Virus record (IMG/VR): IMGVR_UViG_3300050027_000006
Length of the DNA stretch: 64,000 nucleotides
Direction: 5' to 3' (one strand)
DNA from: a virus
The notes beneath the pieces are model-generated. The model saw only the letters and a program-made list of their open reading frames with translations. It was not told the origin of the DNA and made no database searches. Positions 3,832 through 62,794 of this stretch are shown piece by piece. A program made the translations under genes and the position numbers. Within the stretch, counting starts at the first letter, position 1. Each line of letters opens with the position of its first letter.

Positions 3832-6765
3832 ATGCCGGAACTGTGGACGCCCTCAGGCTCCCGCCAGGTGCAGGCCGACGCCGATGTCTTCGGCGCCCTC
3901 GCTGACGCCACCGGACATCAGGACTACCACGCCCTAGCGAAGACTGCTCTCGCCAAGGGCAAGCAGGGCGCTGTCGATACGTCGGATGTCGTCGCTGAGA
4001 TGCGAGCCAACCGCCGCATCACCAAGAACGCCTCTGGTGGCGTCAACAGCGGACAGGGCATGGGTGGAGTAGGCCAGTTCTCGTTCGCTACCGCACGCCC
4101 TCGTGACCCGCTCTTCTACTGGCGCCAGAACAACCTCCCCTACGACGTAGCGAAGGACGAGGAGCTAGAGAAGATCCGTGCGTTCTGCAATACACCAGAT
4201 GCCCCGGTGTGGATGGCTGATTACTCGTTCAAGCCGATGGGTCAGATTGTTGAAGGGGATGAGGTCATCGGCTGGGAGTATCGCACGGGACCACAGGGCG
4301 AGGTACGTAAGGTACTTGTCCGCACCCCCGTTCTAGCTATTCAACGTCGGATCGCCCCCGAGATTGTCAAGGTGACCTTCGAGTCTGGTGAGGTTATCCA
4401 TTGCACACCGGACCACCTATGGGCCAATCCACATTACTCCCCTAACCAAACTACCGGCTGGAAGCAGCCGGAATATCGGACGGCTGAGGTTGGACGAGAA
4501 CTTGTTCGGATGGTTACCCCCACTCCCGAGTTGAGTTCCGAAAAGGAGTTGATAGTGGCCGCATGGCTGGGGGGCGTTTATGACGGTGAGGGATGTGGAG
4601 AAGGGATTGCTCAAAGCCAGAGTCATAATCCTGGGGTATGTCAACGGATCGCTGACTCACTGGACTTCCTGGGGATTCCATATACGCAGACTCCCGAGTC
4701 ATTTTGGTTGCGGGTGCCTGGTCGTCGTCAAGGGGCCGCACAAGACCTAGTGGACTTCTTGAACTGGACCAATCCGACAAGGCGGGTGACTGCGGCGATT
4801 GACAAGAGGTTGCTGGCTACACCGAATGGTGGACGAGAGAAGATCGTCAGTATCGAATCAGAAGGCTCCGGCGAAGTAGTTTCGATACAGACGGGAACTG
4901 GTAACTACACCGCTTGGGGTATTGCTTCCAAGAACTGCCGTCTGCTCTACATCACACACCCCGTCATCGCCTCGGCCATCGACATCTTCTCGAAGTACCC
5001 GCTCATCGGGATGGAGATGACCGGCAAGGACGACGAACTCAACGACTTCTACGGCGACCTCTTCTTCGACCAGCTTGACTACGAGGAGTTCCTACTCGAC
5101 GTGGGTCGAGAGTATTGGACCGTGGGCGAGGCATGGCCGCTCGGCACCTTCAACGACACGCTCGGCGTGTGGGAGTCCGACGAACTCATCAACCCGGACG
5201 ACGTTGAGGTCATTCGCTCACCGTTCCTCAAGGAGCCTCGCTTCAAGATGAAGCTCCCCGAGACGATCCGCAAGATCATCTTGGAGCGTGAGCCGAAGTG
5301 GGAGTACGAAGCCCTCATGAGGGTGTACCCCGAGCTTGCTCACTTCAGCCGTGAGGAGTCGAAGATGGATGTCTCCGGCGTCCTCCTCAAGCAGTTGAAG
5401 TTCAAGGCCGACAGCTTCCACCCCCGAGGCATCCCGATCCTGATGCGTGGCTTCCGTGCCGTCATTCAGGAAGAGATGCTCAACGCCGCCCAGGATGCCA
5501 TCGCTGAGCGCCTCTACACCCCGATGATCGTGGCCAAGCTCGGTGCCTCCGCATCCGACCTCGGTACCACGCAGCCGTGGGTCCCGAACCAGGGCGACCT
5601 CGAAGCGTTCGAGGCATCGCTCGACGCCGCCCTCGCTGGCGACTTCCGAGTCCTGATCCACCACTTCGCCCTCGACATCTCGCAGGTGTTCGGCAAGGAG
5701 GCCATGCCGGACTTCAGCCCGGACTTCGACCGCCTCACCGACCGTCAGCTTCAGGTGTTCGGTCTGTCCCGCACGATGCTCAACGGCGCTGGCTCCGGTG
5801 AGACCTACGCCGCCGACGCCCTCAACCGAGACATCGTGACGCAGTTGCTCTCGACCTACCAGCGTAAGATCCAGCGCTTCTGGAAGAGCCGGGCCATGGT
5901 CGTGGCCGAGGCCCAGGAGCACTACGACTACGAAGAGCGCAACGGCATCAAGTACCCGATCATGGAAGAGATCCTCGAAGTCAACGAGGAGACCGGCGAA
6001 GAGCGCATCGTGGAGCGACCGAAGCTCCTCATCCCCGACCTAACCTTCAAGACCATGAGTCTGGCCGACGAGGACAGCAACCAGCAGTTCATGGAAACCC
6101 TCCGTGCCTCTGGTGTGCCGATCTCGATGAAGACCCGACTGGTCAACGTCGACATCGATCTGGACGAGGAAGTCGAGAAGGTCAAGGAAGAGCAGATCGA
6201 GCTTGCTGTCGCCGCACAGGAGACCCGCAAGGAGACCTACCTTGCCCTCCTCGCCGCTGGTCTGCCGATCCCCGACGACCTCAAGGAAGACTTCCAGCCG
6301 GTCGCTCAGACTCAGGGTCCCGTCGATGCTGCCGGTCAGCCGGAAGGTCCGCAGGTGCTCCCGGCCCTCGGACTGGACGAGCCTGCCCCGACCGACGCTC
6401 TGGCCCCGACCGACGAGGACATCGCCGCAGCCGAGGACGCAGAGGCCGATGAGGGTGAGGACCCCAACTCCTTCGGTGGTGACTCCCTCTCGGGCAAGAT
6501 GCCTCCGGGTGATGACGATCAGACTGATGACGCTAGCGGCAGCACTATCCCTCTTCCCCGCAACCAGCACGCTTCTCGACCGCCCGAGAGCGACGAGCAG
6601 CGAGGCAAGATGCCCAAGGGTTCTAGCCTCTCGACGGGTCCTCGCCACGTCGGCGCCCGCAAGTTCCGCACCCTCGACCGAACTCAACCCCTGGCAGATC
6701 AGCTACGTGCGCCTGTCTGGCCCCATGAAAATGCAACTAAGGAACGTAATGAGACGACAGACTAG
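3832..6765 (+). CDS. portal protein interrupted by an intein
   Basis: 977-codon ORF. Removing codons 119-368 joins ...EKIRAF|CRLLYITHPVIASAIDIFSKYPL.... The 727-aa extein, the acidic C-terminal tail and the lack of a Walker A fit a portal rather than a terminase. Assignment is by resemblance from memory, not by search. Confidence 0.65.
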   Translation: MPELWTPSGSRQVQADADVFGALADATGHQDYHALAKTALAKGKQGAVDTSDVVAEMRANRRITKNASGGVNSGQGMGGVGQFSFATARPRDPLFYWRQNNLPYDVAKDEELEKIRAFCNTPDAPVWMADYSFKPMGQIVEGDEVIGWEYRTGPQGEVRKVLVRTPVLAIQRRIAPEIVKVTFESGEVIHCTPDHLWANPHYSPNQTTGWKQPEYRTAEVGRELVRMVTPTPELSSEKELIVAAWLGGVYDGEGCGEGIAQSQSHNPGVCQRIADSLDFLGIPYTQTPESFWLRVPGRRQGAAQDLVDFLNWTNPTRRVTAAIDKRLLATPNGGREKIVSIESEGSGEVVSIQTGTGNYTAWGIASKNCRLLYITHPVIASAIDIFSKYPLIGMEMTGKDDELNDFYGDLFFDQLDYEEFLLDVGREYWTVGEAWPLGTFNDTLGVWESDELINPDDVEVIRSPFLKEPRFKMKLPETIRKIILEREPKWEYEALMRVYPELAHFSREESKMDVSGVLLKQLKFKADSFHPRGIPILMRGFRAVIQEEMLNAAQDAIAERLYTPMIVAKLGASASDLGTTQPWVPNQGDLEAFEASLDAALAGDFRVLIHHFALDISQVFGKEAMPDFSPDFDRLTDRQLQVFGLSRTMLNGAGSGETYAADALNRDIVTQLLSTYQRKIQRFWKSRAMVVAEAQEHYDYEERNGIKYPIMEEILEVNEETGEERIVERPKLLIPDLTFKTMSLADEDSNQQFMETLRASGVPISMKTRLVNVDIDLDEEVEKVKEEQIELAVAAQETRKETYLALLAAGLPIPDDLKEDFQPVAQTQGPVDAAGQPEGPQVLPALGLDEPAPTDALAPTDEDIAAAEDAEADEGEDPNSFGGDSLSGKMPPGDDDQTDDASGSTIPLPRNQHASRPPESDEQRGKMPKGSSLSTGPRHVGARKFRTLDRTQPLADQLRAPVWPHENATKERNETTD
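4186..4935 (+). mobile_element. intein (250 codons) with one LAGLIDADG-like motif
   Basis: Starts with Cys (CNTPDAPVWM, block A-like). Contains TPDH (block B-like) and AAWLGGVYDGEGCG (LAGLIDADG-like). Ends ...GNYTAWGIASKN followed by Cys +1. Visibly lower GC than the flanks. Confidence 0.75.
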
Positions 6766-15619: not shown

Positions 15620-16104
15620 TAGATGCAACGGGCTTCACTTCCTTCGCTCAGAGTCTCGGTGGACTTGCCACCTTCGTCGCTGTCCTCGTCATCCCCGGCG
15701 CATGGCTGTTCCACCGCAAGGTCATCCGCCCCCTCTCCTTCGTGCTCGGCCTGAAGCAGGAGGACTCCCCGACCGGCGAGCCGATCCCTTCCATCCCCGT
15801 ACAGCTTGCCGAGATGCGCAAGAACCAAGAGGTCTTCAAGGAGCAGGTGCGTACCATCAATGCGGAGGTACACCCCAACGGTGGGAACTCGCTGAGGGAT
15901 GCAGTTGACAGCAACGGCAGGAACACTCGTGAACTCAGCATGAAGGTCGTGGATCTTCAGGGCACCTTGGATTCGCATCTCGCAGAGGAGCGCAGAGAGC
16001 GAGAGAAGATCGCTGCCCTGGCGCTCAAGACCGCCGCCGACTTCGCCGCTCTCACCGAGAAGACCGCAGCCCAACTAGCGAAGGACAACCGTGCTCAAGG
16101 TTAG
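15616..16104 (+). CDS. membrane-anchored coiled-coil protein
   Basis: ATGA coupling. N-terminal TM (LGGLATFVAVLVIPGAWLF). HPNGGNSLRDAV motif followed by a coiled coil. Confidence 0.65.
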   Translation: MIDATGFTSFAQSLGGLATFVAVLVIPGAWLFHRKVIRPLSFVLGLKQEDSPTGEPIPSIPVQLAEMRKNQEVFKEQVRTINAEVHPNGGNSLRDAVDSNGRNTRELSMKVVDLQGTLDSHLAEERREREKIAALALKTAADFAALTEKTAAQLAKDNRAQG

Positions 16105-16393
16105 GATCGGCAACGCCGAAGAGGTCACGACCCTCCTCATCCCGAGCGAGTTCGACCTTGAACGTCGGTTCGACAATGCTGTCGCAGCGCTGAGTCTCCA
16201 CTTGGTTGAAGATGGGCCTCGGTGGATTGAATCAGAAGATCTAGCGCTCAATCTTTTGCTAGAAGAGCACTATGGCCCGTCTTGCGGAAGTGATGTCCCA
16301 TCGCACCAGGATGACTCTCCATCCCGCAATCTTTGCAGATCCGTCGCATCGACGCAACAGGTGGACGGCGACCTTGGAGTGCTTGCCGGATAA
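16091..16393 (+). CDS. hypothetical protein; its 3' third is antisense to the GIY-YIG gene
   Basis: GTG start overlaps the upstream gene by 14 nt. The first ~52 codons look protein-like. From 16248 the ORF runs antisense through the convergent homing endonuclease gene. Confidence 0.35.
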   Translation: MLKVRIGNAEEVTTLLIPSEFDLERRFDNAVAALSLHLVEDGPRWIESEDLALNLLLEEHYGPSCGSDVPSHQDDSPSRNLCRSVASTQQVDGDLGVLAG

Positions 16394-16766
16394 GTGTTCG
16401 ATGCTGATCGGACATCGGCTGCATCTTCTGGCCACTGCGGGTCGCAGAGATACGAGCATTGCGCTCAGGGGTAGGGAGCGGATAAGTCCGGGGACGCCGA
16501 GAGTTTAGTGTGCGACCCATTCCTCGCTCAACATAGAAGTCATACCAGCGAGCTTCTGCTTCGGCTCCATCCTGGGTGATCTCTAGGAGTTGGATATGAA
16601 AGGCTGATCTACCAAGCTCTGCGATCTTTGCTCGGAGAAGAGGACAGAGGCTAGTGGACTTGACATGACCTTTCCAGCGCTGTGCAAGCGAGTTGATCGT
16701 ACATCCCACGTACCAGTCATCATCGACCGAGTTGGTGATGAGGTAGATGTTGGAAGTCCTGTCCAT
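16248..16766 (-). CDS. GIY-YIG homing endonuclease
   Basis: NIYLITNSVDDDWYVGCT..RWKGH motif. Start set at MDRTSN (16766), 6 nt downstream of a TGcTATAAT box. Lower GC than the surroundings. Confidence 0.8.
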   Translation of the reverse strand: MDRTSNIYLITNSVDDDWYVGCTINSLAQRWKGHVKSTSLCPLLRAKIAELGRSAFHIQLLEITQDGAEAEARWYDFYVERGMGRTLNSRRPRTYPLPTPERNARISATRSGQKMQPMSDQHRTLIRQALQGRRPPVASMRRICKDCGMESHPGAMGHHFRKTGHSALLAKD

Positions 16767-16772
16767 GAGTCC

Positions 16773-16781
16773 ATTATAGCA
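16773..16781 (-). promoter_or_regulatory. extended -10 box TGcTATAAT
   Basis: Reverse complement of attatagca. Six nt separate it from the ATG at 16766, giving leaderless architecture. Confidence 0.45.
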
Positions 16782-16789
16782 CCTAAGAG
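16780..16789 (+). promoter_or_regulatory. CACCTAAGAG motif copy
   Basis: Directly abuts ATG 16790. Same core as 19557, 19649 and 33925. Confidence 0.35.
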
Positions 16790-17224
16790 ATGAGATCTCG
16801 TAGGTGTGACCCCACACAAGGTAAGGTGATTCCCATTAGGACGAATGCAGGAGCCGACTGGCAGGCCGGTGTCATGGCCGACACCGCCAACTCCAATACG
16901 GGCACTTACGCCCCGGCCAACTACATCGCTCTCACGGCAGACTCGGGTGCTCCGGTCGACACGGACACCACGTTGCCCGGCGAGCTAGAGACAGGCGGCT
17001 CCGGTACGCTGTCCCGCACGCAGGCCACCTACGCCCACACCACCGGTTCGAGCACCTACACGCTGACGAACCTCTTCACGTCGGACGCCTCTGTGACCGT
17101 CGCCAAGGTCGGGATCTTCAACGACCCGGACACTGGCACGCTCGTGTTCGAGGATCTCTTCGGCGTCCCGGCTGTGCTCTACTCCGGCGACCAACTTCTC
17201 GTGGTCAGCACCGTCAACTTCTAG
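16790..17224 (+). CDS. small structural (fibre-associated?) protein, paralog of 28840..29301
   Basis: YIALTADSGAPVDTDTTLPGELE...VGIFNDPDTGTLVFEDLF has the same layout as 28840..29301. The start is uncertain: ATG 16790, GTG 16826 or ATG 16874. Confidence 0.6.
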   Translation: MRSRRCDPTQGKVIPIRTNAGADWQAGVMADTANSNTGTYAPANYIALTADSGAPVDTDTTLPGELETGGSGTLSRTQATYAHTTGSSTYTLTNLFTSDASVTVAKVGIFNDPDTGTLVFEDLFGVPAVLYSGDQLLVVSTVNF

Positions 17225-18303: not shown

Positions 18304-18903
18304 ATGACCACAAACTTGTTGGAGAAGTTCAACTCCATCAAGGCCCAGTCCGACGCTCCTACGGCGCCCACTCCGGCCCCCGCCGCCTCAACTCCCGCCG
18401 TGCGTGGCGGCAACGTCAAGCCCAACCGCTATGGCGGCAAGTGCGAGAAGTGCCGTAGCTGGGTCGAGCCGGGTGCAGGGTCCTTCCGCAAGGGCGACAC
18501 CGGCTGGATCGTCTTCCATGTCGAGTGCCCCGAGGCCGTTCCCTTCCGCATCACCTCCACCGATCAGGCGGTGCCCGATGAGGGCCTCTACGTGCTGGAT
18601 GATGAGCGGATCGTCAAGATCAAGAGTAACAAGGCAGGGACGGGTCGCTACGCAAGCGTGTGGGTCGAGATCGGTGGGCATCGTCTCACTGAGGCTGGCG
18701 AGTACGTAAACGGTGAGTGGGAGTACGCTCCCGCACTGCGATCCTTCTGCAAGCCCGAGCGCCGCATGACGATCGAGCAGGCCAAGGCGTTCGGTGTCCT
18801 CTACGGCAAGTGTGCCAAGTGTGGGCGCCACCTGAGTGATGCTGAGTCAGTGGAGCGGGGTATCGGTCCCGTGTGCTTGAAGAGTTTCAGTGCCGTTGCT
18901 TGA
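18304..18903 (+). CDS. hypothetical protein with DUF6011-like C-terminal motif
   Basis: CAKCGRHLSDAESVERGIGPVC motif. A TAGACT box lies 6 nt upstream of the ATG. Confidence 0.7.
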   Translation: MTTNLLEKFNSIKAQSDAPTAPTPAPAASTPAVRGGNVKPNRYGGKCEKCRSWVEPGAGSFRKGDTGWIVFHVECPEAVPFRITSTDQAVPDEGLYVLDDERIVKIKSNKAGTGRYASVWVEIGGHRLTEAGEYVNGEWEYAPALRSFCKPERRMTIEQAKAFGVLYGKCAKCGRHLSDAESVERGIGPVCLKSFSAVA

Positions 18904-19348
18904 GAAGTGGTGTAATGGCTGCAAGCGGACTCTTCCCGAGTCCGCTTTCAGTCGTCACAAGAGTGGAGATCGCCAAGGGAGCCTGCGTGCTCGGTGCAAG
19001 GAATGCGATATTGTCGCTGCGAAGAAGTGGCAGCGGGCTAACCGGGACCGTATGCTGGCTCAGAAGACAGCCTACCGAGCCGCCCATCCAGAAGAGACTC
19101 GTCGGTATCAGCGCAGGAAGAACTGGCGAGTGATGGGTCTTGACCCGGATGAGGTAGAGTCCTTACTTGAACGGAATGAGGGTCGGTGTATGATCTGCGG
19201 AGTCCAAGAAAAGCTTGTGCCCGATCATGACCACGAGACTCTAGAGCTTCGTGGGGTATTGTGTCACTGGTGTAACACCGGTCTTGGGATGTTCCGAGAT
19301 GATCCATCCTCTCTGGCTGCTGCCATCGTCTATCTGAAAGGCGCCTGA
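18890..19348 (+). CDS. HNH endonuclease (endonuclease VII type)
   Basis: VPDHDHETLELRGVLCHWCNTGLGMF. N-terminal CNGCK..CKEC module. GTG start overlaps the upstream gene. Confidence 0.8.
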   Translation: MPLLEKWCNGCKRTLPESAFSRHKSGDRQGSLRARCKECDIVAAKKWQRANRDRMLAQKTAYRAAHPEETRRYQRRKNWRVMGLDPDEVESLLERNEGRCMICGVQEKLVPDHDHETLELRGVLCHWCNTGLGMFRDDPSSLAAAIVYLKGA

Positions 19349-19570: not shown

Positions 19571-19606
19571 TAGCACGGGTGAAGGAGGTGAACGTATCTG
19601 TGACTC

Positions 19607-19628
19607 CGCCTCGGCTTTGGCCGGGGCG
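19607..19628 (+). terminator. GC-rich hairpin (9-bp stem incl. one G-U, loop TTTG)
   Basis: ccgcctcggc-tttg-gccggggcg. No U tract. Lies inside a possible 18-codon uORF (19600-19656). Confidence 0.35.
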
Positions 19629-19648
19629 CTGTCACGAGCGCTCTGAGT

Positions 19649-19662
19649 CCACCTAAGTGGTG
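19649..19662 (+). promoter_or_regulatory. CCACCTAAGTGGTG motif copy
   Basis: Ends 2 nt before ATG 19665. Its TAA is the stop of the candidate uORF. Confidence 0.4.
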
Positions 19663-19664
19663 AG

Positions 19665-22600
19665 ATGAGCATCCTCAAGACTACCTCCTTCCAGATCTTG
19701 AGCGCTTCGATGGCTGGTCAGTCGGAACGCACGTTCAAGACCGCTCACCGGGCCGAGTTCGATCACGTCGAGCGCCGACCCGGCTACCTGTACGTCCGTT
19801 CCCGAGCCATCTCCTCTCGCATCAACGAGAACTTCGACGGCTTCGACGCTGACGAGATCGCCAAGGGCTACCAGACGTTCATGGGCAAGCCCGTGTTCGT
19901 CTCGCACCACAACTCGAACCACCGACGTGCCCGAGGCGCCATTGTCGCCGTGGCGCTCCACGAGGACCACCTAGCTACCGGCGAGCCGGATACCTGGGTA
20001 GAGGTTCTCATGGAGGTCGATGCGGTCAACTTCCCGAAGCTGGCCCAGGCCATCATCGCCGGAGAAGTCGCACGCACCTCGATGGGTTGCGACGTAGCCT
20101 ACTCGTCCTGCACCTTCTGCGGCAACAAGGCCTACACCGAGGCCGAGTATTGCAAGCACATCCCCCGCCTCAAGGGCAAGCGCATCCGTCGAGTGGACGC
20201 CAAGACCGGCGCAAGCTCGATGGTGCTCGTGGCCGAGCAGTGTTTCGGGTTGCATTTCTTTGAGAACTCCCTCCTGGTCGAGGAGCCTGCCGACCCTTCT
20301 GCTTTTTGCCTGGGCACAGATTGGGTGGATTCAGATATGACTCCACACCATGCCAGTGCGAATAGCATGGATAGTTCCATCGCTTACGCCGAAGCGATTG
20401 CCAATATCCCTCAGCGTGAGTTGTCCACGACGAGTGCGTCCTCTCCCGACCGCAACCTGGGGAAGCAAGTCTCGCTTGATGATGAGGACTTCTTCTTCGG
20501 TCAGCACGTGAGCAGCATTGCGTACACCGGAAGCGCTACGCCCCCGCTCCACCATGTCGGTCGAGTTGTCGGCGTTGGTACCGAGCAGCCAGTGGGCAGG
20601 ATTGTGGCAGAGAGGAACATCGCAGGTATGGCGAACGACCAGTCCTTCGGGGATTGGGCCGACGATCTGCTCGTATCCCCATCTGTGGGAGCGGACGGAG
20701 CTTCGCTTAGCGTCGGACAGCGAGAAGCGTCCATAGCCCGAGTCGAAGACACCCCCGGTCCAAAGCCAGCATTCGTCCTCACCACGGACGGCGACCTTCG
20801 ACCAGTAGCGCTCAATCTCGGACATAGTGAAGCGGTCATTCCTAGCCATGTGCCCCATCTTAGCACGTTCGAGGCAGGCTTCATCCTCACGGCTGACAGC
20901 AATGATCTCCCCGAACTGAAGATGCCACCGCCGCCGTACCGTGTGAACTGTCGCAACTGCGGCCAGCAGAGCGTGACGAACAAGAACCACCCGAAGTGCG
21001 AGTCCTGTGGCGACCTCCATGTGTCCCCCGTGCGCCGTGCATCGAAGGAAGCCGCCACCCAAGAAGAGGCCGAGCGTACCGGCCCGTGCCCTCACTGTGG
21101 TGGCAAGCTCTTCTCGAATGGCTTCCCCGGCACCTCCCCGTACTGCGGCTCGTGCCAGACCCACATCCCGCTGAAGCCCAAGGCATCGTCCTTCGGTGGC
21201 AAGCGTGTTGCTAGCCTCCACAAGCGTGCTGTCAATCAGTGCATCCGCCACTACGAGCACGAGGTTGGACCCAATGACCTCACGTGTCCTGTATGCGAGT
21301 CCCTGATGTACTATGGGACTCCCACCACCAAGATGCCTGATGACCAATATCTCGAATGGCTCTCCAAGCAGCCCTACGAGGCTCGTAAGCACGCCATCAA
21401 CGAGACCATCGCTCCGCCCGAGGTCGACACCCTCCGTGCATCCGAGTGCCCTATCTGTGGCTCCGACGCCTACAACGGCGAGGAGTGCCCGGTGTGCATG
21501 TTCATCAAGCCGCCCGACATGTTCATGGACCCGGACCTCGAAGCTGCTCAGAATGCCGACCTCCGCCAGGATGAGGCCCAGGACGGTCTAGCCGTTGGCG
21601 ACCAGGTAGGCAACGATCACCTACAGGGCCAGACCCCGGTGGGCGACGACCTCATGGCTGCTGGCCAAGAGGGTGACCTTCAGTGCGACTCCTGTGGTGC
21701 CGTACAGCCCGGCCAGGCCTCCGCAGGGACCGACAACGCCGTCAACGGAGCACCCACTACACAGCCTACTTCACAGCCTCCTACACAGCCCGGAGCAGAG
21801 CCGCCGCCGCCCGTCAACGACGAGTCCATGCCGCTGGCTCAGGGACCGCCCGAGGACGACGACGTGCCGCCCGCTGGCAAGGAGCTTCCGAAGCCGAAGG
21901 ACGGCGAGAACGACGACGGCCAGGACGACGGCTCGAAGGCCGAGACCAAGCCGAAGGGCGACCCCGCCGACAAGGGCAAGGTCGAGTCCGACATCGATGC
22001 CGGGAAGTCCGACACCACCAAGCCGACCGAGGACGAGGCCGTCGACACCCTACAGAAGGATCTCAAGCCAGGCGACCCATGCCCGGTCTGCGACGGCAAG
22101 GGCAAGCTTCAGCCCAAGGCTGACGACAAGAAGGACGACCAGAAGGTCGAAGACAAGGATAGCAAGGACGACAAGGAGGACGGACCACCCTGGCAAAAGG
22201 GCGATAACTCCTCCAAAGAAGTGAAGGCTCAGTCGTCACTCAACCACGACACCCCAGGAGTATCTGATATGGCAGCCCCCACCGTCAAGGTTCTAGCATC
22301 GCACCAAGCCGAGATTCGTCGCCTCAAGGCGGAGAACGCTCAGCTTCGTCGTTCCGTGAACTACATCGCCGCAGCCGTTGGCATCACCCGCTTCGCTGAC
22401 GACCAGAACCCGGCAGAGCCGATCCCGCAGCCCGCAGGTGGCGCTCCGTCCGAGACCTCGGAAGAGGCCATGAACGCAGCTACTCGTGTCAACGTGCAGG
22501 AGATCGGCTCGACGCCGGTCAACGGTGTTGGCGCAGATGCGACCACCACGGTGGATCAGGTCGGCGGCATCAATGCTGACACCCCGTACTCGATCAACAC

Positions 22601-23081
22601 CGAGGTCACCACCCCGGTGTCTGGTACCGAGACCCGCATCCCTCTCGACAAGGTTCGCACCTTGCCGGAGATCCAGTTCGGCAACCCCCTTGTGCCGGAC
22701 ACCGCCTTCCCTCTCGAAGGCCCCTTCGCTGAGAAGGCAACGCTAGGCAGCAAGGGCCGCACCTACGCCGCTCTTCGCCTCGCACGTCTCCGCAAGGCTG
22801 CGGGCGTCGATGAGACTGGCTCCGACGAGATCGTTGTTGCCAACGCCATCGACACCAACGCATCGCTGAGCGACGGCGCCATTGCGCAGGAGATCGACAT
22901 CCTCACGAAGGTCGTCACCGCCACGCAGGCACCGACGCCCCGCCAGGCAAGCCGTCGTCTCGTCCCGCAGTCCTCTGCTGGTGTCGAGCGCACGATCCCG
23001 TCCGTAGCAGTAGGTGAAGGTCTCACGTCATTCACGGCAGCAGCCGCAAGTGACGACGACGCATTCGCATTCTGCGACTAA
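19665..23081 (+). CDS. prohead protease / Zn-ribbon / scaffold fusion protein (ORF stays open across an antisense HNH gene)
   Basis: The N-terminal 215 aa end in FFENSLLVEEPADPSAF, like prohead protease C-termini. Then ~200 aa are antisense to the HNH gene. Then come four Zn ribbons, a K/D/E-rich disordered linker and a coiled-coil scaffold-like C-terminus. The putative capsid genes follow. Confidence 0.65.
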   Translation: MSILKTTSFQILSASMAGQSERTFKTAHRAEFDHVERRPGYLYVRSRAISSRINENFDGFDADEIAKGYQTFMGKPVFVSHHNSNHRRARGAIVAVALHEDHLATGEPDTWVEVLMEVDAVNFPKLAQAIIAGEVARTSMGCDVAYSSCTFCGNKAYTEAEYCKHIPRLKGKRIRRVDAKTGASSMVLVAEQCFGLHFFENSLLVEEPADPSAFCLGTDWVDSDMTPHHASANSMDSSIAYAEAIANIPQRELSTTSASSPDRNLGKQVSLDDEDFFFGQHVSSIAYTGSATPPLHHVGRVVGVGTEQPVGRIVAERNIAGMANDQSFGDWADDLLVSPSVGADGASLSVGQREASIARVEDTPGPKPAFVLTTDGDLRPVALNLGHSEAVIPSHVPHLSTFEAGFILTADSNDLPELKMPPPPYRVNCRNCGQQSVTNKNHPKCESCGDLHVSPVRRASKEAATQEEAERTGPCPHCGGKLFSNGFPGTSPYCGSCQTHIPLKPKASSFGGKRVASLHKRAVNQCIRHYEHEVGPNDLTCPVCESLMYYGTPTTKMPDDQYLEWLSKQPYEARKHAINETIAPPEVDTLRASECPICGSDAYNGEECPVCMFIKPPDMFMDPDLEAAQNADLRQDEAQDGLAVGDQVGNDHLQGQTPVGDDLMAAGQEGDLQCDSCGAVQPGQASAGTDNAVNGAPTTQPTSQPPTQPGAEPPPPVNDESMPLAQGPPEDDDVPPAGKELPKPKDGENDDGQDDGSKAETKPKGDPADKGKVESDIDAGKSDTTKPTEDEAVDTLQKDLKPGDPCPVCDGKGKLQPKADDKKDDQKVEDKDSKDDKEDGPPWQKGDNSSKEVKAQSSLNHDTPGVSDMAAPTVKVLASHQAEIRRLKAENAQLRRSVNYIAAAVGITRFADDQNPAEPIPQPAGGAPSETSEEAMNAATRVNVQEIGSTPVNGVGADATTTVDQVGGINADTPYSINTEVTTPVSGTETRIPLDKVRTLPEIQFGNPLVPDTAFPLEGPFAEKATLGSKGRTYAALRLARLRKAAGVDETGSDEIVVANAIDTNASLSDGAIAQEIDILTKVVTATQAPTPRQASRRLVPQSSAGVERTIPSVAVGEGLTSFTAAAASDDDAFAFCD
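20331..20858 (-). CDS. HNH homing endonuclease (HNH_3 type) nested antisense in the protease-scaffold ORF
   Basis: CWLWTGGVFDSGYGRF..SHRWGYEQIVGPIPEGLVVRHTCDVPLCHNPAHWLLGTNADN. Start set at MGHMARN (alternative 20849). The 353-codon track ORF is a GC-driven upstream extension. Confidence 0.8.
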   Translation of the reverse strand: MGHMARNDRFTMSEIERYWSKVAVRGEDECWLWTGGVFDSGYGRFSLSDAKRSSVRSHRWGYEQIVGPIPEGLVVRHTCDVPLCHNPAHWLLGTNADNSTDMVERGRSASGVRNAAHVLTEEEVLIIKRDLLPQVAVGRGRTRRGQLTLRDIGNRFGVSDGTIHAIRTGMVWSHI

Positions 23082-23164: not shown

Positions 23165-23719
23165 ATGTTCCGAACTAACCTCGCAACGAGCTACCTGAAG
23201 CGCACGCTCCGTCCGCTCTACGGTTGGACGCAGGCTACGCCGAAGTCGGGCTTCCTCGATCCGTCGTGGGACCGCACTGTCGGCCTGTACCCCGGCTTCG
23301 CACTGACGAAGACCGTGGGCAACAACTACGTCCCGCTCGGCACCGCCAACGGCTCGGCCTCCAAGGCCAGCCAGCAGCCTGCCGGTCTCCTCAGCCAGTG
23401 GGTCGGCGGCGCAGGTATCGATGAGCTTCTCGAAAGCGGCGTCAACGCCCTCTCGGTGTGGGTCCTCGGTCCCGATGCTGAGTTCGAGGTTCTCGCTCCC
23501 GCCTTCGACGCCGTGACCGGTGGCTCATGGGCCACTGCCGATGTCGTCGGCAACGATGGTGTCGACACCCTCATCTACGCATACGTTGACACCGTTCCGG
23601 GTCAGCTTTGCCTCGCTGGTGGCTCTGGCGGAACGGTCTCGTCCTCACCGGTCGCCCGTCTCGTGCAGGTCGAGTCCACCAACTCCATCATCATCGCTGG
23701 CCTACGAGGCACTCACTAA
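23165..23719 (+). CDS. virion protein between scaffold and capsid genes (decoration-like?)
   Basis: RBS GGGAG. The call rests on position only; no motif recognised. Confidence 0.6.
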   Translation: MFRTNLATSYLKRTLRPLYGWTQATPKSGFLDPSWDRTVGLYPGFALTKTVGNNYVPLGTANGSASKASQQPAGLLSQWVGGAGIDELLESGVNALSVWVLGPDAEFEVLAPAFDAVTGGSWATADVVGNDGVDTLIYAYVDTVPGQLCLAGGSGGTVSSSPVARLVQVESTNSIIIAGLRGTH

Positions 23720-23746: not shown

Positions 23747-24739
23747 ATGTCATCCCTCACCGTTGCAGGTGGCCTCAAGCCACGAGTAGCTCGCAAGTCT
23801 GACGACTACGTGACCGAGATCCTCGCCCGTCGAGGTACCCCGGACGGCTCGTCACGCATGACGCACGAGTCCAAGGTCAAGAAGATGGCTCTCATCCTTC
23901 AGGATGAGGTCAACGGCATCCGTCGCCTCGGCGTCGGCATGATCGGCCCGATCCAGTTGAAGCTTCGATACCAGGGTATCGTCCGCAACGTCCTCGTGGA
24001 AGACCCGGTAACGCCGGGTACTCCGGTCGAGTACGACGTGTGGGACGACCTCGGTCAGGCCTACATCATGAACGGCACCGATGGTGAAGTTCGTGTGACG
24101 CCGTTCGAAGGCAAGCGAGTTCCGATCTTCTTCTTCCGCATCGCCAGCCGCCCGGCTGTCCGTAAGGAAGACCTGTTCTACCTCCGCATCAACGTGGTCG
24201 AGCAGGCTCAGGACGAGACCAAGCAGGCCATCATGAAGCAGGAGGACAGCCGCCTCATCGTCCTCCTACAGGCTGCCGAGAACGACTACGCCACCCGACC
24301 CGATCACGTCATCACGCCTTACCACAACGTGACCGAGACGAGCGGCTACTTCACCCCGCAGTCGTTCTACACCGCCGTCGCACAGACGGACATGCACGAG
24401 ATCGTCTCCGGTCGAGTCCTGGTCAACCCGCTTGACTACCGTGACTTCTTCCGCTGGGACATCAACACGACCGGTTGGGCCTTCAAGGACCGAGTTGTCG
24501 CTGGTGAGCAGATCACGACCTACGGCGAGTTCCAGATCCAGCGCTCGATCATGCAGACGCAGGGCGAGATGTTCCTGCTCCCGAACCCCGACTTCCTCGG
24601 TGTGTTCCCCGTCCTGTACTCGCTCGACGTGGAAGAGAACCACTCGGTCGAGGACTTCTGGAAGGGCTGGGTCTTCGATGAGATGGTCTCCATGGCCGTC
24701 CTCAACCCTCGTGGCATCGCCTCGATCACCAAGTCGTAA
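23747..24739 (+). CDS. major capsid protein (HK97-fold type, putative)
   Basis: 330 aa. Strong RBS GGAAAGG. Lies downstream of the protease-scaffold gene. The segment ...VVEQAQDETKQAIMKQEDSRLI... resembles capsid/encapsulin-type proteins. Confidence 0.65.
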   Translation: MSSLTVAGGLKPRVARKSDDYVTEILARRGTPDGSSRMTHESKVKKMALILQDEVNGIRRLGVGMIGPIQLKLRYQGIVRNVLVEDPVTPGTPVEYDVWDDLGQAYIMNGTDGEVRVTPFEGKRVPIFFFRIASRPAVRKEDLFYLRINVVEQAQDETKQAIMKQEDSRLIVLLQAAENDYATRPDHVITPYHNVTETSGYFTPQSFYTAVAQTDMHEIVSGRVLVNPLDYRDFFRWDINTTGWAFKDRVVAGEQITTYGEFQIQRSIMQTQGEMFLLPNPDFLGVFPVLYSLDVEENHSVEDFWKGWVFDEMVSMAVLNPRGIASITKS

Positions 24740-25179: not shown

Positions 25180-25232
25180 ACCCATGTCTACGGTCTGCTA
25201 TACTAGATCGGCCCTAGAGGAACGAGGACACC

Positions 25233-25793
25233 ATGAGCAACGGCGAGATCTATCTGATCGACAGTAGTGATTACTGGTATGTGGGATCTACCACTCGTGG
25301 TTGTGAACGTCGCTTCAAAGAACACATAGCTGGATACGATCCCTACAGTCTGGTGCAGGCTAAGATTCAGGAACTTGGTGCTGAGGCCTTTAGCTTCACG
25401 GTTGTTGAAGTCACTGAAGAGAATCCCATCGAAGTAGAGCAGCGATGGTATGATTGGTATCTCGCCAATGACCCCCGTCAGACCTTGAACGGACGACGAC
25501 CTGGGCTTTGGGACGGATGGAACAGGGGTAAGTCTCCATCTCTCACAACACGAGCTAAGCAGAGTATTGCGATGACCGGAAAGCCAGGTCCAAGAAAAGG
25601 CAAGACTCTCAGTGCGGAAACCCGAGCGAAGATTAGTGCCTCGCTGACCGGTAAAACTCAATCGAATGAGACACGAGCTAAGCGCAGTGCTGCACTCAAG
25701 GGACATTCCTATCAGGGAGTGCAACACCACACTGAAGAGACCAAAGCCAAGATTAGCGCATCTCTCAGAGCACGAAGAGGGGTATCATCATGA
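25233..25793 (+). CDS. GIY-YIG homing endonuclease with NUMOD3-like repeats
   Basis: GEIYLIDSSDYWYVGSTTRGCERRFKEH. Repeats LSAETRAKISASLTG / SNETRAKRSAALKG / HTEETKAKISASLRA. cTGcTATACT box and RBS upstream. Lower GC. Confidence 0.85.
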   Translation: MSNGEIYLIDSSDYWYVGSTTRGCERRFKEHIAGYDPYSLVQAKIQELGAEAFSFTVVEVTEENPIEVEQRWYDWYLANDPRQTLNGRRPGLWDGWNRGKSPSLTTRAKQSIAMTGKPGPRKGKTLSAETRAKISASLTGKTQSNETRAKRSAALKGHSYQGVQHHTEETKAKISASLRARRGVSS

Positions 25794-26522: not shown

Positions 26523-27080
26523 ATGAGCACCACCTTGCAGCAGCCGATCCTGATCCGCAACACCAAGCCCGGCCCGACCGTCTTCACCGACGCCAAGTCC
26601 GGTGCCGAGATCACGTGGGGCGGTGCCAACGACGCCATGGGCGACGACGTGCAGGCTGTCGACGCTGACCTCCTCAAGAACACCGAGTTCCTCCGCTCGC
26701 TGAGCCGTGGCACGTTCGAGGTCGAGTCAGCCCCCGATGATGTCATGCAGGCGCTTGCGGGCCATCTCGACTCCCCGGCGCTCCGTCGCCAGGCAGCCAA
26801 CTGGGCAGCCAAGCAGGCCACTGAGGCAAGCACCTCGATCGAGAAGATCGAGCGCACCGACAAGAACGATATCGTGTCGGTCACGTGCGTCGGCCCGAAC
26901 ACTCGTGGCGACGGCGAGTGCGGCGAGCAGATCGCCGTCCGTGAGAACGCCAAGAACGAGAAGGCGCCTCTGTGCCCGACTCACTCGCAGCTTGCTCCGC
27001 AGTACGTGCCGACCGAGGACGGCGGCTGGGTCCGAGTGGGCCTCGCTGCACGACAAACGCATCAGCCAGTGGTGTCATAA
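26523..27080 (+). CDS. hypothetical protein (virion module)
   Basis: RBS GAGGAAAGGTACC; 185 codons; Cys cluster CVGPNTRGDGECG..CPTH. Confidence 0.65.
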   Translation: MSTTLQQPILIRNTKPGPTVFTDAKSGAEITWGGANDAMGDDVQAVDADLLKNTEFLRSLSRGTFEVESAPDDVMQALAGHLDSPALRRQAANWAAKQATEASTSIEKIERTDKNDIVSVTCVGPNTRGDGECGEQIAVRENAKNEKAPLCPTHSQLAPQYVPTEDGGWVRVGLAARQTHQPVVS

Positions 27081-27085
27081 CGATC

Positions 27086-27607
27086 ATGCAGTACGAGATC
27101 TACCTCATCACAGCCCCAGGATATTGGTACATTGGCTCTACTACAGTAGGCGCTAAGACAAGATTGCATCAGCATCTTGCTGGGTGGAGTGGAGCTAAGA
27201 AGCTGACTGCCAAGATCAAGATGTTGGGTGAAGATGCGTTTCAGATGACAGTAGTTGAGAAGGGCAATGGCAATCCTATCGAAGCCGAACAGCGATGGTA
27301 TGATTTCTACATCAGCATCTTCGGTAGCCATACCAGTCTCAATGGGAAGCGACCCTCTAACTGGGATGGTTACATGTTGGAGCATGGTCATACTGAGGAT
27401 ACCAAGCTCAAGATTAGTGCTGCACTCAAAGGTCGCCCACAATCATCAGAGTTGATTGCTAAGCGCAGCGCTGCTTTGATGGGTCATGCTACTTCAGCAG
27501 AGACCCGAGCTAAGATCAGCAATACTCTGACTGGTCACACTCAGAGCGAAGAAACCCGAGCCAAAAGAAGCGCATCTATGAAGCGCTATTACGCAGGAAA
27601 GAACTAA
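27086..27607 (+). CDS. GIY-YIG homing endonuclease with NUMOD3-like repeats
   Basis: MQYEIYLITAPGYWYIGSTTVGAKTRLHQH. Repeats HTEDTKLKISAALKG / SAETRAKISNTLTG / SEETRAKRSASMK. Start is an internal Met of track ORF 26972. Lower GC. Confidence 0.85.
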   Translation: MQYEIYLITAPGYWYIGSTTVGAKTRLHQHLAGWSGAKKLTAKIKMLGEDAFQMTVVEKGNGNPIEAEQRWYDFYISIFGSHTSLNGKRPSNWDGYMLEHGHTEDTKLKISAALKGRPQSSELIAKRSAALMGHATSAETRAKISNTLTGHTQSEETRAKRSASMKRYYAGKN

Positions 27608-41659: not shown

Positions 41660-42189
41660 ACCGACAGGACACATGGACACGGTTCGTCCGTGACATCACC
41701 GCATGGCAGGCCCGCAACGGTCATGGCCCCGTGGGACTCTCGACCGACCCCGAGGACTACGTGCGAACCCCCGTGTCCGCTGTGGTACTTCAGTGGCATG
41801 AGGAGGGTGTGTGCGGTGGCTCGTGTCAGTTCTGCTTCGTGCCCCCACGCTGCCCGTCCACGCCGCCGCCGTTCAAGTACGAGACGCAGCAGTGCGATCG
41901 TCCGGTCGGACACGAGGCTCCTCACTGGTTCGATGATGGCTGGTTCCGACACGAGTGGACCGAGAGCCACATGGAGTGGTGCGGCCTTGACACAGATCAC
42001 GAGGGAATGTGTCACCCTCCTCGACCGTGGGAGACCGAGGGCGAGAAGGGCCAGCCGGAGGCAGAGCCAGAAGCCCCGCCAGAGGCCCCTGAGGCTTCGC
42101 CTGAGGCTCTACTCCGCCAGGGAGCGGTCATTGTCCTCAAGGAGATCCTGAGGGCTGTGACAGCCCTTCTAGAGGAGGTAGAGTCCTGA
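41656..42189 (+). CDS. hypothetical Cys/His-rich protein
   Basis: ATGA coupling; 177 codons. Confidence 0.65.
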   Translation: MNRQDTWTRFVRDITAWQARNGHGPVGLSTDPEDYVRTPVSAVVLQWHEEGVCGGSCQFCFVPPRCPSTPPPFKYETQQCDRPVGHEAPHWFDDGWFRHEWTESHMEWCGLDTDHEGMCHPPRPWETEGEKGQPEAEPEAPPEAPEASPEALLRQGAVIVLKEILRAVTALLEEVES

Positions 42190-42830
42190 TGGGTAAGTTG
42201 AGAGTCCATACTACAGTCATCGAGTCATGTCTTGACGAGGGCAACGGGAGATGTTCGGAGGGTGCGGGAGCCGATGGACGGGTCATGAATCGTTGCGACA
42301 TCCATTACCGCAAGCATAAGCGGGAGACACGCACCGATAAATGCAAGAAGCGAGGGTGCAAGGAGAGGGCACAGATCGTCGGGCGATGTCGAGAGCATGG
42401 CAATGAACATATGCGGCGACTGAAGAAGCGCAAGAACAAGAGAGTCTACAGCACCGGCACTCTTCGAGACAAGTTCTTCCAATGGGCTGACATCACGCAG
42501 ACCGAGATCCTACCACACGAGTGGAGTGATGCCTGGCTGAGGGGTATTCGCACCCCGTGCTGGATATGGACGGGATACACAGCGGGCGGCAATCCTCGTG
42601 GCCAGATCAAGCACAACAACCAGAACTTCATGGCTTATCACGTGGCCTACGAGTTGTATCGAGGTGCGATGCCTGATGGGCTGACCTACGATCACCTCTG
42701 CTACCGACCCCAGTGTGTCAATCCTTGGCATGGTGAGCCGGTTTCAAATGAAGAGAATCGCACTCGTGGTATCGCTGCGAAGAAGCGCAAGAAGGAGTGG
42801 CTCGCTCGCCACGGGGCGGCAGCAGCGTAA
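42189..42830 (+). CDS. HNH homing endonuclease (HNH_3 type)
   Basis: CWIWTGYTAGGNPRGQIKH..AYHVAYELYRGAMPDGLTYDHLCYRPQCVNPWHGEPVSNEEN. TGATG coupling. Confidence 0.8.
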   Translation: MGKLRVHTTVIESCLDEGNGRCSEGAGADGRVMNRCDIHYRKHKRETRTDKCKKRGCKERAQIVGRCREHGNEHMRRLKKRKNKRVYSTGTLRDKFFQWADITQTEILPHEWSDAWLRGIRTPCWIWTGYTAGGNPRGQIKHNNQNFMAYHVAYELYRGAMPDGLTYDHLCYRPQCVNPWHGEPVSNEENRTRGIAAKKRKKEWLARHGAAAA

Positions 42831-61844: not shown

Positions 61845-62272
61845 TGTCGAGCACCATCGAACATCGTAATCCCATCTTCTCGGTGACCCGAGATCACCTC
61901 AAACTCCTCAAGTCCTCTGTAGTGGCGTGGTCGTCCCAGTGGGACGGTACGATGTTCGGAGCCGCCTGCGTCGATCCTAGGCGCCCCTACGGTGACCGTG
62001 ACGTGTACCGCAGCATGTTGCGTATCCTCGGCTGGAAGATGAACCGAGTGGCCGACCTGCGAACCGCCGAGTTCCGTGACTGGGACATCGAGACCGACGA
62101 GATCCCCATCGATGAGATGAACCGGCTCGACCAGCTACACCAGGAGACCGAGATCGCACTGCGAATCTGCCTGAGCCGTGGCGAGTTCGAGACCGGCATC
62201 TTCAGGTGGCCCGAACCGGGCGGCAAGTGGGAGAAGATCGCCGTCGCAAGATCTACCCTTCCTTCCGTCTGA
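61844..62272 (+). CDS. hypothetical protein
   Basis: TGATG coupling; 142 codons. Confidence 0.6.
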   Translation: MSSTIEHRNPIFSVTRDHLKLLKSSVVAWSSQWDGTMFGAACVDPRRPYGDRDVYRSMLRILGWKMNRVADLRTAEFRDWDIETDEIPIDEMNRLDQLHQETEIALRICLSRGEFETGIFRWPEPGGKWEKIAVARSTLPSV

Positions 62273-62311
62273 AAACCTGCTATACTGTAGGGGACCTATG
62301 GAAGGAAACTC

Positions 62312-62689
62312 ATGGCTGGACCCTATACTCCACAAGAAGATCTCAAGCCCTGTGGGACCACGGCAGCCTATCGTCGTCACATCAACAGAGGAGAACCAAC
62401 TTGCGATCCATGTAAGGAAGCTAACCGCATCTTCTTCGCTGACTATCGGGAAAGTCGCAAGACCGAACTGAATACCTATCATCAACAGTGGTACACCAAT
62501 CAGACTGAAGCTCAGAAGTTCAAGAAGCGTATCAAACGATACGGCTTGACCCTCGAAGAGTTCGCATGGATGTTTCACGATCAAGACTTCCGGTGTGCGA
62601 TCTGCTTCACCACGGAGTCTGATGGTAAGGATTGGCATATCGATCACGATCACGAGTGTTGCGCAGGCGAAAGATCTTGTGGACGGTGA
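62312..62689 (+). CDS. endonuclease VII-type HNH gene, N-terminal part up to an in-frame TGA
   Basis: RBS GGAAGGA. CGTTAAYRRHINRGEPTCDPC module. HIDHDHECCAGERSCGR, then TGA at 62687-62689. Confidence 0.7.
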   Translation: MAGPYTPQEDLKPCGTTAAYRRHINRGEPTCDPCKEANRIFFADYRESRKTELNTYHQQWYTNQTEAQKFKKRIKRYGLTLEEFAWMFHDQDFRCAICFTTESDGKDWHIDHDHECCAGERSCGR

Positions 62690-62794
62690 GTGCGAGGCAT
62701 CTTGTGTATGGGATGTAATCACGGTCTCGGAAGTTTCAAAGACAATCCGTTGGCTCTACAGTCAGCCATATCATATCTAGGAGACACAAAATGA
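62690..62794 (+). other. in-frame continuation of the endonuclease VII-type gene beyond the TGA
   Basis: Same frame: VRGILCMGCNHGLGSFKDNPLALQSAISYLGDTK*. Its stop overlaps the endolysin ATG (ATGA at 62791-62794). Confidence 0.65.

Follow-up and report, generated by a model that had tools for sequence, protein, structure and literature searches.

A viral DNA stretch of 64,000 nucleotides (nt; IMG/VR virus record IMGVR_UViG_3300050027_000006), referred to here as the window, carries on its plus strand a gene for a putative head-morphogenesis polyprotein of 1138 amino acids (aa). Within this gene, on the minus strand, lies a complete gene for an HNH_3-type homing endonuclease, and the frame of the head gene remains open across it. 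We think it probable that the homing endonuclease gene (HEG) resides antisense and in register in a disordered linker of an essential head gene, that the host gene is translated straight through it, and that neither an intron nor an intein is involved. All embedded carriers are metagenome sequences of uncultured phages, and the whole case is one of sequence analysis. The features that are needed to follow the argument are these:

19665..23081, plus strand: host gene, head-morphogenesis polyprotein, 1138 aa (open reading frame [ORF]; family of long proteins including Cali gp93 and P0002-P0007)
19665..20321, plus strand: conserved N-domain, putative prohead protease (phrog_2774, phrog_18299, AlphaFold2 [AF2], BFVD; homology to D219)
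20322..20867, plus strand: antisense-derived codons, aa 220-401, a ~180-aa linker absent from P0002, P0003, P0005 and P0007
20331..20849, minus strand: HNH_3 homing endonuclease gene, 172 aa, ATG at 20847-20849 and TGA stop at 20331-20333 (Pfam/PHROG; homologues)
20562..20690, minus strand: HNH_3 catalytic core (...VRHTCDVPLCHNPAHWLLGTNADN...), Pfam match, aa 57-99 of the 175-aa version
20857..20865, minus strand: -10-like hexamer TAAGAT (20857-20862) with preceding TGC, 7 nt upstream of the HNH ATG; putative promoter
20868..20918, plus strand: resumption of host sequence (FEAGFILTADSNDLPEL), right anchor common to empty-site relatives (codon by codon against L003, L004 and L005)
20919..23081, plus strand: Zn-ribbon modules, acidic/Pro-rich spacer, long helix and conserved C-terminal region (family alignment, AF2)

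An earlier note, made by a model from the letters of this stretch, had described a 1138-codon plus-strand ORF at 19665-23081, an N-domain ending in ...FFENSLLVEEPADPSAF at 20306, and the absence of any in-frame stop between this domain and the downstream modules. The ORF list and the continuity of the plus frame bear out all three points. The note had also stated that the plus frame is exactly codon-aligned with the antisense HNH gene, and indeed 19665 and 20331 are both divisible by 3. Because the frames are aligned in this way, a plus-strand stop can arise only from TTA, CTA or TCA on the minus strand, and a codon count confirms that the 12 Leu and 13 Ser codons of the HNH gene include none of these. 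The TGA stop of the HNH gene is read on the plus strand as TCA, which encodes Ser223.

The plus- and minus-strand products were compared with Pfam, PHROG, NCBIfam, PDB sequences, PDB folds (Foldseek) and BFVD. The minus-strand product matches Pfam HNH_3 (PF13392) with 36.5 bits against a curated cut-off of 24.8, matches PHROG HNH families with E values from 1.7e-29 to 1e-11, and has homologues in more than 1500 phage records. The catalytic and metal-binding pattern H..C D..C.N..HW..G....N is invariant in nine aligned embedded homologues, and no relative with a solved structure is detectable by sequence. By these matches the product appears to be a nuclease of the HNH (beta-beta-alpha-Me) class. 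The minus-strand ORF ends at 20331-20333 and offers ATG codons at 20858, 20849 and 20825. The earlier note had placed the gene at 20331-20858; its claim of a complete HNH_3 gene stands, but the start is likely the ATG at 20849, which aligns with the conserved Met of relatives and lies 7 nt after the -10-like hexamer. Its claim that an insert of ~610 nt is lower in GC holds for positions 20200-20500 (0.535-0.555 versus ~0.62), but the remainder is not clearly lower. GC content at third codon positions (GC3) is 0.66 in the HNH gene and 0.77 in the host gene. In the contigs examined, none of the HNH genes had been called by gene callers. The minus frame itself stays open for 353 codons (20331-21392) and runs into the antisense of the Zn-ribbon region, where there is no family match and the GC pattern is non-coding. 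It is open as far as 21392 only because of the high GC content, and this extension is a by-product that lies outside the gene.

The host protein belongs to a family in which a conserved N-domain is followed by a hypervariable, modular middle with Zn-ribbons and then by a conserved C-terminal region. The closest named relatives are ~1290-aa proteins of Cluster C mycobacteriophages such as Cali gp93, which is 41% identical to the host protein across aa 10-213. Residues 1-214 match phrog_2774 (E 2.8e-55; profile 1263 positions long), the N-domain matches phrog_18299 'head maturation protease' (E 1.5e-18), and the terminus of this domain is the most conserved motif of the family, FFENSLLVEEPADPSAF.LG.D. 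In the AF2 model, aa 30-202 have predicted local distance difference test (pLDDT) scores of 70-87; the N-domain model has a pLDDT of 71, and confident islands occur downstream, with helices at 871-904 and 1029-1088. Among the BFVD models that match the N-domain in fold are some that bear the names prohead protease, XkdF or COG3740 (E 1e-4 to 1e-3; TMq 0.33-0.45), along with unnamed jumbo-phage proteins. A portal gene (3832-6765) lies upstream with other genes between, and a cement gene (23165-23719) lies directly downstream, ahead of the major head protein gene (23747-24739).

The empty site could be defined by aligning the window with relatives that lack the insert, as the earlier note had suggested. 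Host homology with the empty-site loci L004 and L005 extends to D219 (~20321) and restarts at F402 (20868), and the insert therefore consists almost entirely of the HNH ORF, beyond which it extends by only ~10 nt to the left and ~18 nt to the right. Zn-ribbon and scaffold modules had been thought to resume at about 20920; the motif KMPPPPY does begin at 20919, but host homology is already back at F402. The empty-site region of L004 and L005 encodes FFENSLLVEEPADPTAFVLGIDG...GFILTAD. In the window's clade the cassette stands in place of an unrelated linker of 45-55 codons that, in empty alleles, joins the anchor PADP.AF.LG.D to the anchor GFIL.AD. The linkers of L004 and L005 were searched for HNH remnants, and none were found. 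The peptide SIAYAEAIANIPQR belongs to the plus-strand segment aa 220-401. Structure prediction of this segment, also suggested in the note, was run with AF2 and gave pLDDT values of 25-46 and no predicted fold across aa 203-427 of the plus product, such that the segment is predicted to be disordered.

The same arrangement is present in 11 independent metagenomic loci, at the same place and in the same phase, and is interrupted in none. The carrier set comprises nine complete loci and the fragmentary loci L003, L168 and L169, whose plus frame is open over the region available. Among the nine complete loci, GC content ranges from 0.59 to 0.71, HNH proteins are 38-78% identical between loci and N-domains 57-88% identical, and the HNH stop lies 15-21 codons past the invariant PADP of FFENS.LVE.PADP. 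The plus-strand ORFs that run through the HNH gene encode 1083-1767 aa, and the length of the insert keeps the frame in all loci. The segment is carried at the same site by 21 of the best 120 family proteins, in ORFs of at least 1083 aa except for P0006, which is at a contig end; a homologous segment is present in P0004 and P0006 and missing from P0002, P0003, P0005 and P0007. Two DNA-level surveys that do not depend on gene calls gave a concordant picture. A scan of IMG/VR anchored on the N-domain (best 80 loci) yielded seven further carriers, and scans of IMG/VR and metagenomes anchored on the HNH gene yielded the same seven plus at least two new ones, L168 and L169.

The earlier note had considered that related genomes might show a stop codon or separate genes at this junction. 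No such interrupted carrier was found among the best 120 family proteins or the best 150 representatives from a search with the N-domain only, and the six proteins of 400 aa or less among the latter all lack the HNH segment and hence are not interrupted variants. It is only by reading through the insert that the conserved C-terminal region comes into frame with the N-domain. Since the loci were recovered from different samples and with different assemblers, an assembly artefact is excluded. For all nine carriers compared, the nearest neighbour by N-domain lacks the HNH gene, a patchy distribution of the kind seen with dispensable mobile elements. The window and L008 form the only pair in which the HNH protein is more conserved than the N-domain (65% versus 61%).

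Comparison of all pairs of the 11 embedded genes reveals 3073, 2729 and 5123 differences at HNH codon positions 1, 2 and 3, respectively. The corresponding amino-acid differences number 3924 in the HNH frame versus 6007 in the plus frame, with plus-frame amino acids diverging 1.5-2 times faster than those of HNH. Since variation is greatest at third positions while the catalytic residues do not change, the HNH frame is under purifying selection as a functional protein-coding gene, and the plus-strand sequence is largely free.

The plus frame has nevertheless left a footprint on the codons of the HNH gene. Not one TTA, CTA or TCA is present in the 1922 codons of the embedded genes, versus ~9.8 expected from host codon usage. 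When computed from each HNH amino-acid sequence and the codon usage of its host, the probability of an open plus frame is 0.095-0.79 per locus with a product of ~6e-6, while the single-locus chance for the window is p ~0.09-0.11. As a control, free-standing HNH relatives in contigs of GC >= 0.58 (n=32) contain on average 2.0 TTA, CTA or TCA codons, which make up ~9% of their Leu and Ser codons, and the antisense frame is open in 10 of the 32. Such open frames were considered as further embedded cases; they have no coding-like GC3 and were taken as chance.

Avoidance extends beyond stops. The codons GCA, ACA and CCA, read on the plus strand as Cys, Cys and Trp, have shares of 1.7, 1.0 and 2.5% in embedded genes versus 12.3, 16.5 and 19.5% in the control, a 7- to 16-fold depletion at similar GC3 (0.75 embedded versus 0.71 control). 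GGA, CGA, AGA, GAA and GTA are undepleted, and A-ending codons that the plus strand reads as Ser, Phe, Tyr or Leu are unchanged or enriched. All plus-strand TGN codons and TAA/TAG are thus avoided, Trp and Cys each account for 0.2% of the plus segment, and the depletion is equally evident in all clades, although their synonymous sites have diverged heavily. This footprint appears to be that of translation of the plus frame. If stops, Cys and Trp are avoided for this reason, the host ribosome must read the ~180 antisense-derived codons as part of a continuous polyprotein. The possibilities raised earlier, that the antisense-derived ~200 aa are translated as a tolerated linker and that only ORF-preserving insertions survive, are both supported by these data: by the recurrence in many diverged phages with no interrupted case, by the codon avoidance and by the lack of a predicted fold.

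The junctions provide further detail on how the two genes share sequence. In the high-GC clade (L009 and L010), a duplication of ~24 codons of the host's conserved motif flanks the cassette at the codon level in the order A-B-[HNH]-A'-B'. In B, the upstream copy, AT-ending codons have been brought in by recoding, and the final Leu codon of this copy lies antisense to the HNH stop. A' is degenerate and reads ASVQFGPADH, which is antisense to the first residues of the HNH protein (MVSRSELDGR); the His codon (CAT) of A' lies opposite the HNH ATG. In this clade the putative promoter and the start codon would thus sit within a second copy of a conserved host motif. We infer that recoding of the presumed target region confers immunity to the element's own nuclease, as a homing element needs. 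A duplication of this style could not be shown for the window's clade, and a nucleotide-level search for flanking direct repeats found none of note. There is an imperfect 29-nt direct repeat in the window (20764-20792 and 20872-20900; 72% identical, 108 nt apart). Its copies encode KPAFVLTTDG, antisense to the conserved HNH N-terminal region, and the host sequence EAGFILTADS, and both peptides resemble the N-domain end of empty alleles (PTAFVLGIDG). This repeat may be what is left of a target duplication, or it may be fortuitous.

A scan for full sigma-70 consensus promoters found none, and no Shine-Dalgarno sequence was found; a signal emerged only after the loci were aligned on the HNH start. 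A hexamer TANNNT lies exactly 7 nt before the HNH start in 12 of 12 loci, versus a background of 0.0028 per position (TAAGAT and TAGAAT twice each; TAATAT, TATGAT, TAGTAT, TAAAGT, TAAGCT, TAAAAT, TATCTT and TAATGT). In 11 loci the 7-nt spacer is followed directly by the A or G of an ATG or GTG codon, and in a subset of 10 loci a pyrimidine precedes the start with a purine at the start. A TGN extension is present in five of these 10, including the window (TGC-TAAGAT). The window's hexamer is written inside the host codons His-Leu-Ser, and the extended element inside His-Leu-Ser-Thr. In Mycobacterium tuberculosis, 73% of primary and 76% of antisense start sites have a TANNNT motif 7-12 bp upstream; a -35 consensus is lacking, the strongest promoters are distinguished by TGN, and leaderless mRNAs occur in abundance (PMC3898074). 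By this resemblance, the HNH gene may be transcribed as a leaderless mRNA from an actinobacterial-type promoter.

These observations suggest how such an element could persist in a large, actinophage-like virus. The HNH gene would be transcribed from its own -10-type promoter within host codons, probably ahead of the late transcription of the head gene or independently of it. Its product would cut HEG-less alleles of co-infecting relatives near the sequence coding for FFENSLLVE.PADP, and the HEG would be copied in by recombinational repair between the conserved anchors. The extra linker would be tolerated, the added residues probably staying in the precursor and perhaps being degraded at head maturation.

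Several observations weigh against this explanation or limit its reach. HNH identity roughly tracks N-domain identity, and for this reason ancient vertical descent with repeated loss is inseparable from homing. The Cys and Trp depletion could have a cause other than selection at the protein level, and the Fisher p values for the GCA, ACA and CCA shares (1e-5 to 3e-4) treat related sequences as independent and thereby overstate their independence. In L002 the sequence after the 7-nt spacer begins with GTC, which is not a start codon. Among cultured phages, megablast with the region gave no match, and tblastn with the HNH protein recovered only free-standing relatives of at most 40% identity. 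As for the host, searches of Pfam, NCBIfam and PDB sequences and profiles with the N-domain gave no match that supports the word protease, and Foldseek against PDB with the whole model and with the N-domain gave no match at E < 0.05. Because of these negative searches, assignment of the N-domain as a prohead protease is plausible but not proven; the term 'protease-scaffold' used in the earlier note thus has moderate support, which comes from phrog_18299, the BFVD folds and the position in the head module.

Four other explanations were weighed against residence of a mobile HEG in a translated linker. The HNH protein or its antisense transcription might have been domesticated and persist through some benefit to the phage, not as a purely selfish element: for example in antisense regulation of the late head gene, exclusion of competitors or DNA processing, with the overlap and the read-through unchanged. 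Position, phase and promoter have been kept over deep divergence of both proteins, HNH identity loosely tracks that of the host, and an intron-encoded HEG that aids phage competition has been described (PMC11620839). However, only about one family member in six has the gene, each carrier's nearest relative lacks it, which fits a dispensable mobile element, and the window holds several other free-standing HEGs, making domestication unlikely in our judgement. We regard it as more doubtful still that the HNH gene is an inactive relic whose residual conservation accompanies expression of the plus frame only. The lack of a canonical sigma-70 promoter or Shine-Dalgarno sequence would fit a relic, but the HNH frame has stayed intact in 11 of 11 loci through amino-acid divergence of 22-60%, it varies most at third positions while its catalytic residues do not vary and the plus-strand amino acids change faster, and its start codon is conserved together with TANNNT at a fixed spacing.

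Inserts found in conserved phage genes are frequently introns that carry HNH genes, and this same protein family hosts inteins and so is a hot spot for self-splicing elements. The earlier note had accordingly listed, as one possibility, an intron with an oppositely oriented HEG that is spliced out of the mRNA. A group I or group II intron was rejected. A scan of 19600-21600 with Rfam 15 at thresholds up to E 10 returned only two chance matches, to one sRNA (small RNA) and one miRNA (microRNA) model, and a ribozyme core has no room because only the few nucleotides flanking the HNH ORF are left over. Moreover, splicing would make an open, Cys- and Trp-depleted frame unnecessary, yet selection keeps the frame open and depleted and its length is kept in all loci. 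An intein was likewise rejected, as the window protein has no Hint or Intein match in Pfam and the junction residues are not conserved among loci; true inteins were detected elsewhere in the family. A spliced element is thus very improbable. Least credible of all is a coincidence or artefact, in which a free-standing HEG happens to lie open in a high-GC genome or an assembly fused two sequences. A single instance has a chance of ~10% and 31% of free-standing relatives are open, but 11 of 11 loci from different samples and assemblers are open in the same phase, with a joint probability of ~1e-5, and the C-terminal region is joined in frame to the N-domain only via the insert. Residence of a mobile HEG in a translated linker remains the reading that we favour.

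Inteins do occur in the same gene family. Protein P0004 (L002, 6001-10752), which also carries the antisense HNH gene, has a Hint_2 intein that splits a Zn-ribbon (CPI/C...VHN/CGSD), and P0027 and L168 have an intein just before CYGLKFFENS. One head gene therefore seems to host two kinds of selfish insert. More generally, the middle of the family is an insertion hot spot in which DUF7178 (PF23802), NUDIX, acetyltransferase and PF18760 domains are found, and P0062 carries a sense-oriented HNH_5 module there. A shared module of ~250 aa (...DLC.V.V.GTNLFC..SKGIPR..MPQLK...) is another of these inserts. The proteins with inserted modules include P0018, P0019, P0024, P0030, P0037, P0049, P0050, P0062, P0091 and the DUF7178 carriers, and the modules may be cargo packaged into the head. 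Four loci without the HNH gene (L028, L034, L050 and L085) have much shorter ORFs past the N-domain (509-593 codons), yet their tblastn matches reach the C-terminal region, and in these loci the gene may have been split or frameshifted.

The window genome is heavily colonised by endonuclease genes. The earlier note had proposed a weaker second case at 16091-16393, where a plus-strand ORF of 100 aa converges on a minus-strand GIY-YIG gene (16248-16817; Pfam GIY-YIG E 4e-6). The two overlap by 146 nt at their 3' ends with frames offset by 1, and this convergent arrangement, not being codon-aligned, is not analogous. A GIY-YIG/NUMOD3 endonuclease gene with a GC3 of 0.47 lies at 25233-25793 on the plus strand, and nearly all of it is codon-aligned antisense to a 175-aa minus-strand ORF (25203-25730) with no Pfam match. 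An open antisense frame is less expected at such GC, although it may be due to chance. Further candidate mobile nuclease genes encode an Endonuclease VII protein (18890-19348; E 3.9e-17) and a NUMOD3 protein (26972-27607). A weak HNH-like match with 31% identity to the embedded HNH protein occurs at 42492-42764 within 42189-42830, and a pair of low-GC3 ORFs without a Pfam match lies at 62135-62722.

HEGs are thought to survive in genes by means of introns or inteins, or else between genes, and a codon-aligned antisense insertion is a different solution. In the literature searched we found no description of an antisense or translated-through HEG, which is not proof of absence, and antisense, in-register residence read through by the host appears from the sequences to be new. 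We lean towards viewing it as a fourth HEG lifestyle beside intron-borne, intein-borne and intergenic free-standing genes, one in which the gene is antisense, in register and read through, with its leaderless promoter and start codon contained in host codons. If this is true, the arrangement is one of the clearest natural long antisense overlaps with both strands under selection, and it would provide a rare, statistically clean example of bidirectional coding for the debate on such overlaps. Nested genes like the embedded HNH gene are missed by gene callers. The disordered linker after the N-domain, which would accept ~180 arbitrary residues, may also serve phage-head engineering.

The arrangement shares features with several known systems. 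In T4-like phages, HEGs can split genes, as with nrdA split by mobE in Aeh1. The free-standing seg and mob HEGs of these phages (PMC2988022) resemble the present element in being HNH or GIY-YIG ORFs without an intron or intein, patchily distributed beside conserved coding sequence, and presumed to spread by cleaving the HEG-less allele and co-converting its flanks. However, those genes are intergenic or gene-splitting, whereas here a single uninterrupted ORF encloses the HEG, which runs in register on the other strand, with the host frame presumably translated through and the synonymous sites of the HEG carrying the host's constraint. Inteins are similar in that they are mobile in-frame insertions at a conserved site in an essential phage gene whose ORF stays continuous, but they carry their nuclease in the sense frame and remove themselves by protein splicing, whereas the element described here has no Hint domain or conserved splice junctions.

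The HNH endonucleases of group I introns such as I-HmuI, I-TevIII and I-PfoP3I (PMC3428280) also interrupt conserved phage genes, but here no ribozyme is detected, the endonuclease is encoded antisense and the frame that it interrupts stays open. Fractured genes with split inteins (PMC2677866) likewise contain an endonuclease gene inside an essential gene without an intron; those genes are broken into two ORFs whose products are rejoined by trans-splicing split inteins, whereas the head gene is a single ORF without an intein. A debated class in prokaryotes and phages is that of long antisense overlapping gene pairs, which resemble this locus in that each strand of one DNA segment encodes its own protein. 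To our knowledge, most proposed antisense overlaps come with no evidence that both frames are selected. Unlike most such pairs, one frame at this locus encodes a recognisable enzyme under purifying selection, and the other would supply a required connector of an essential gene that carries its own codon footprint.

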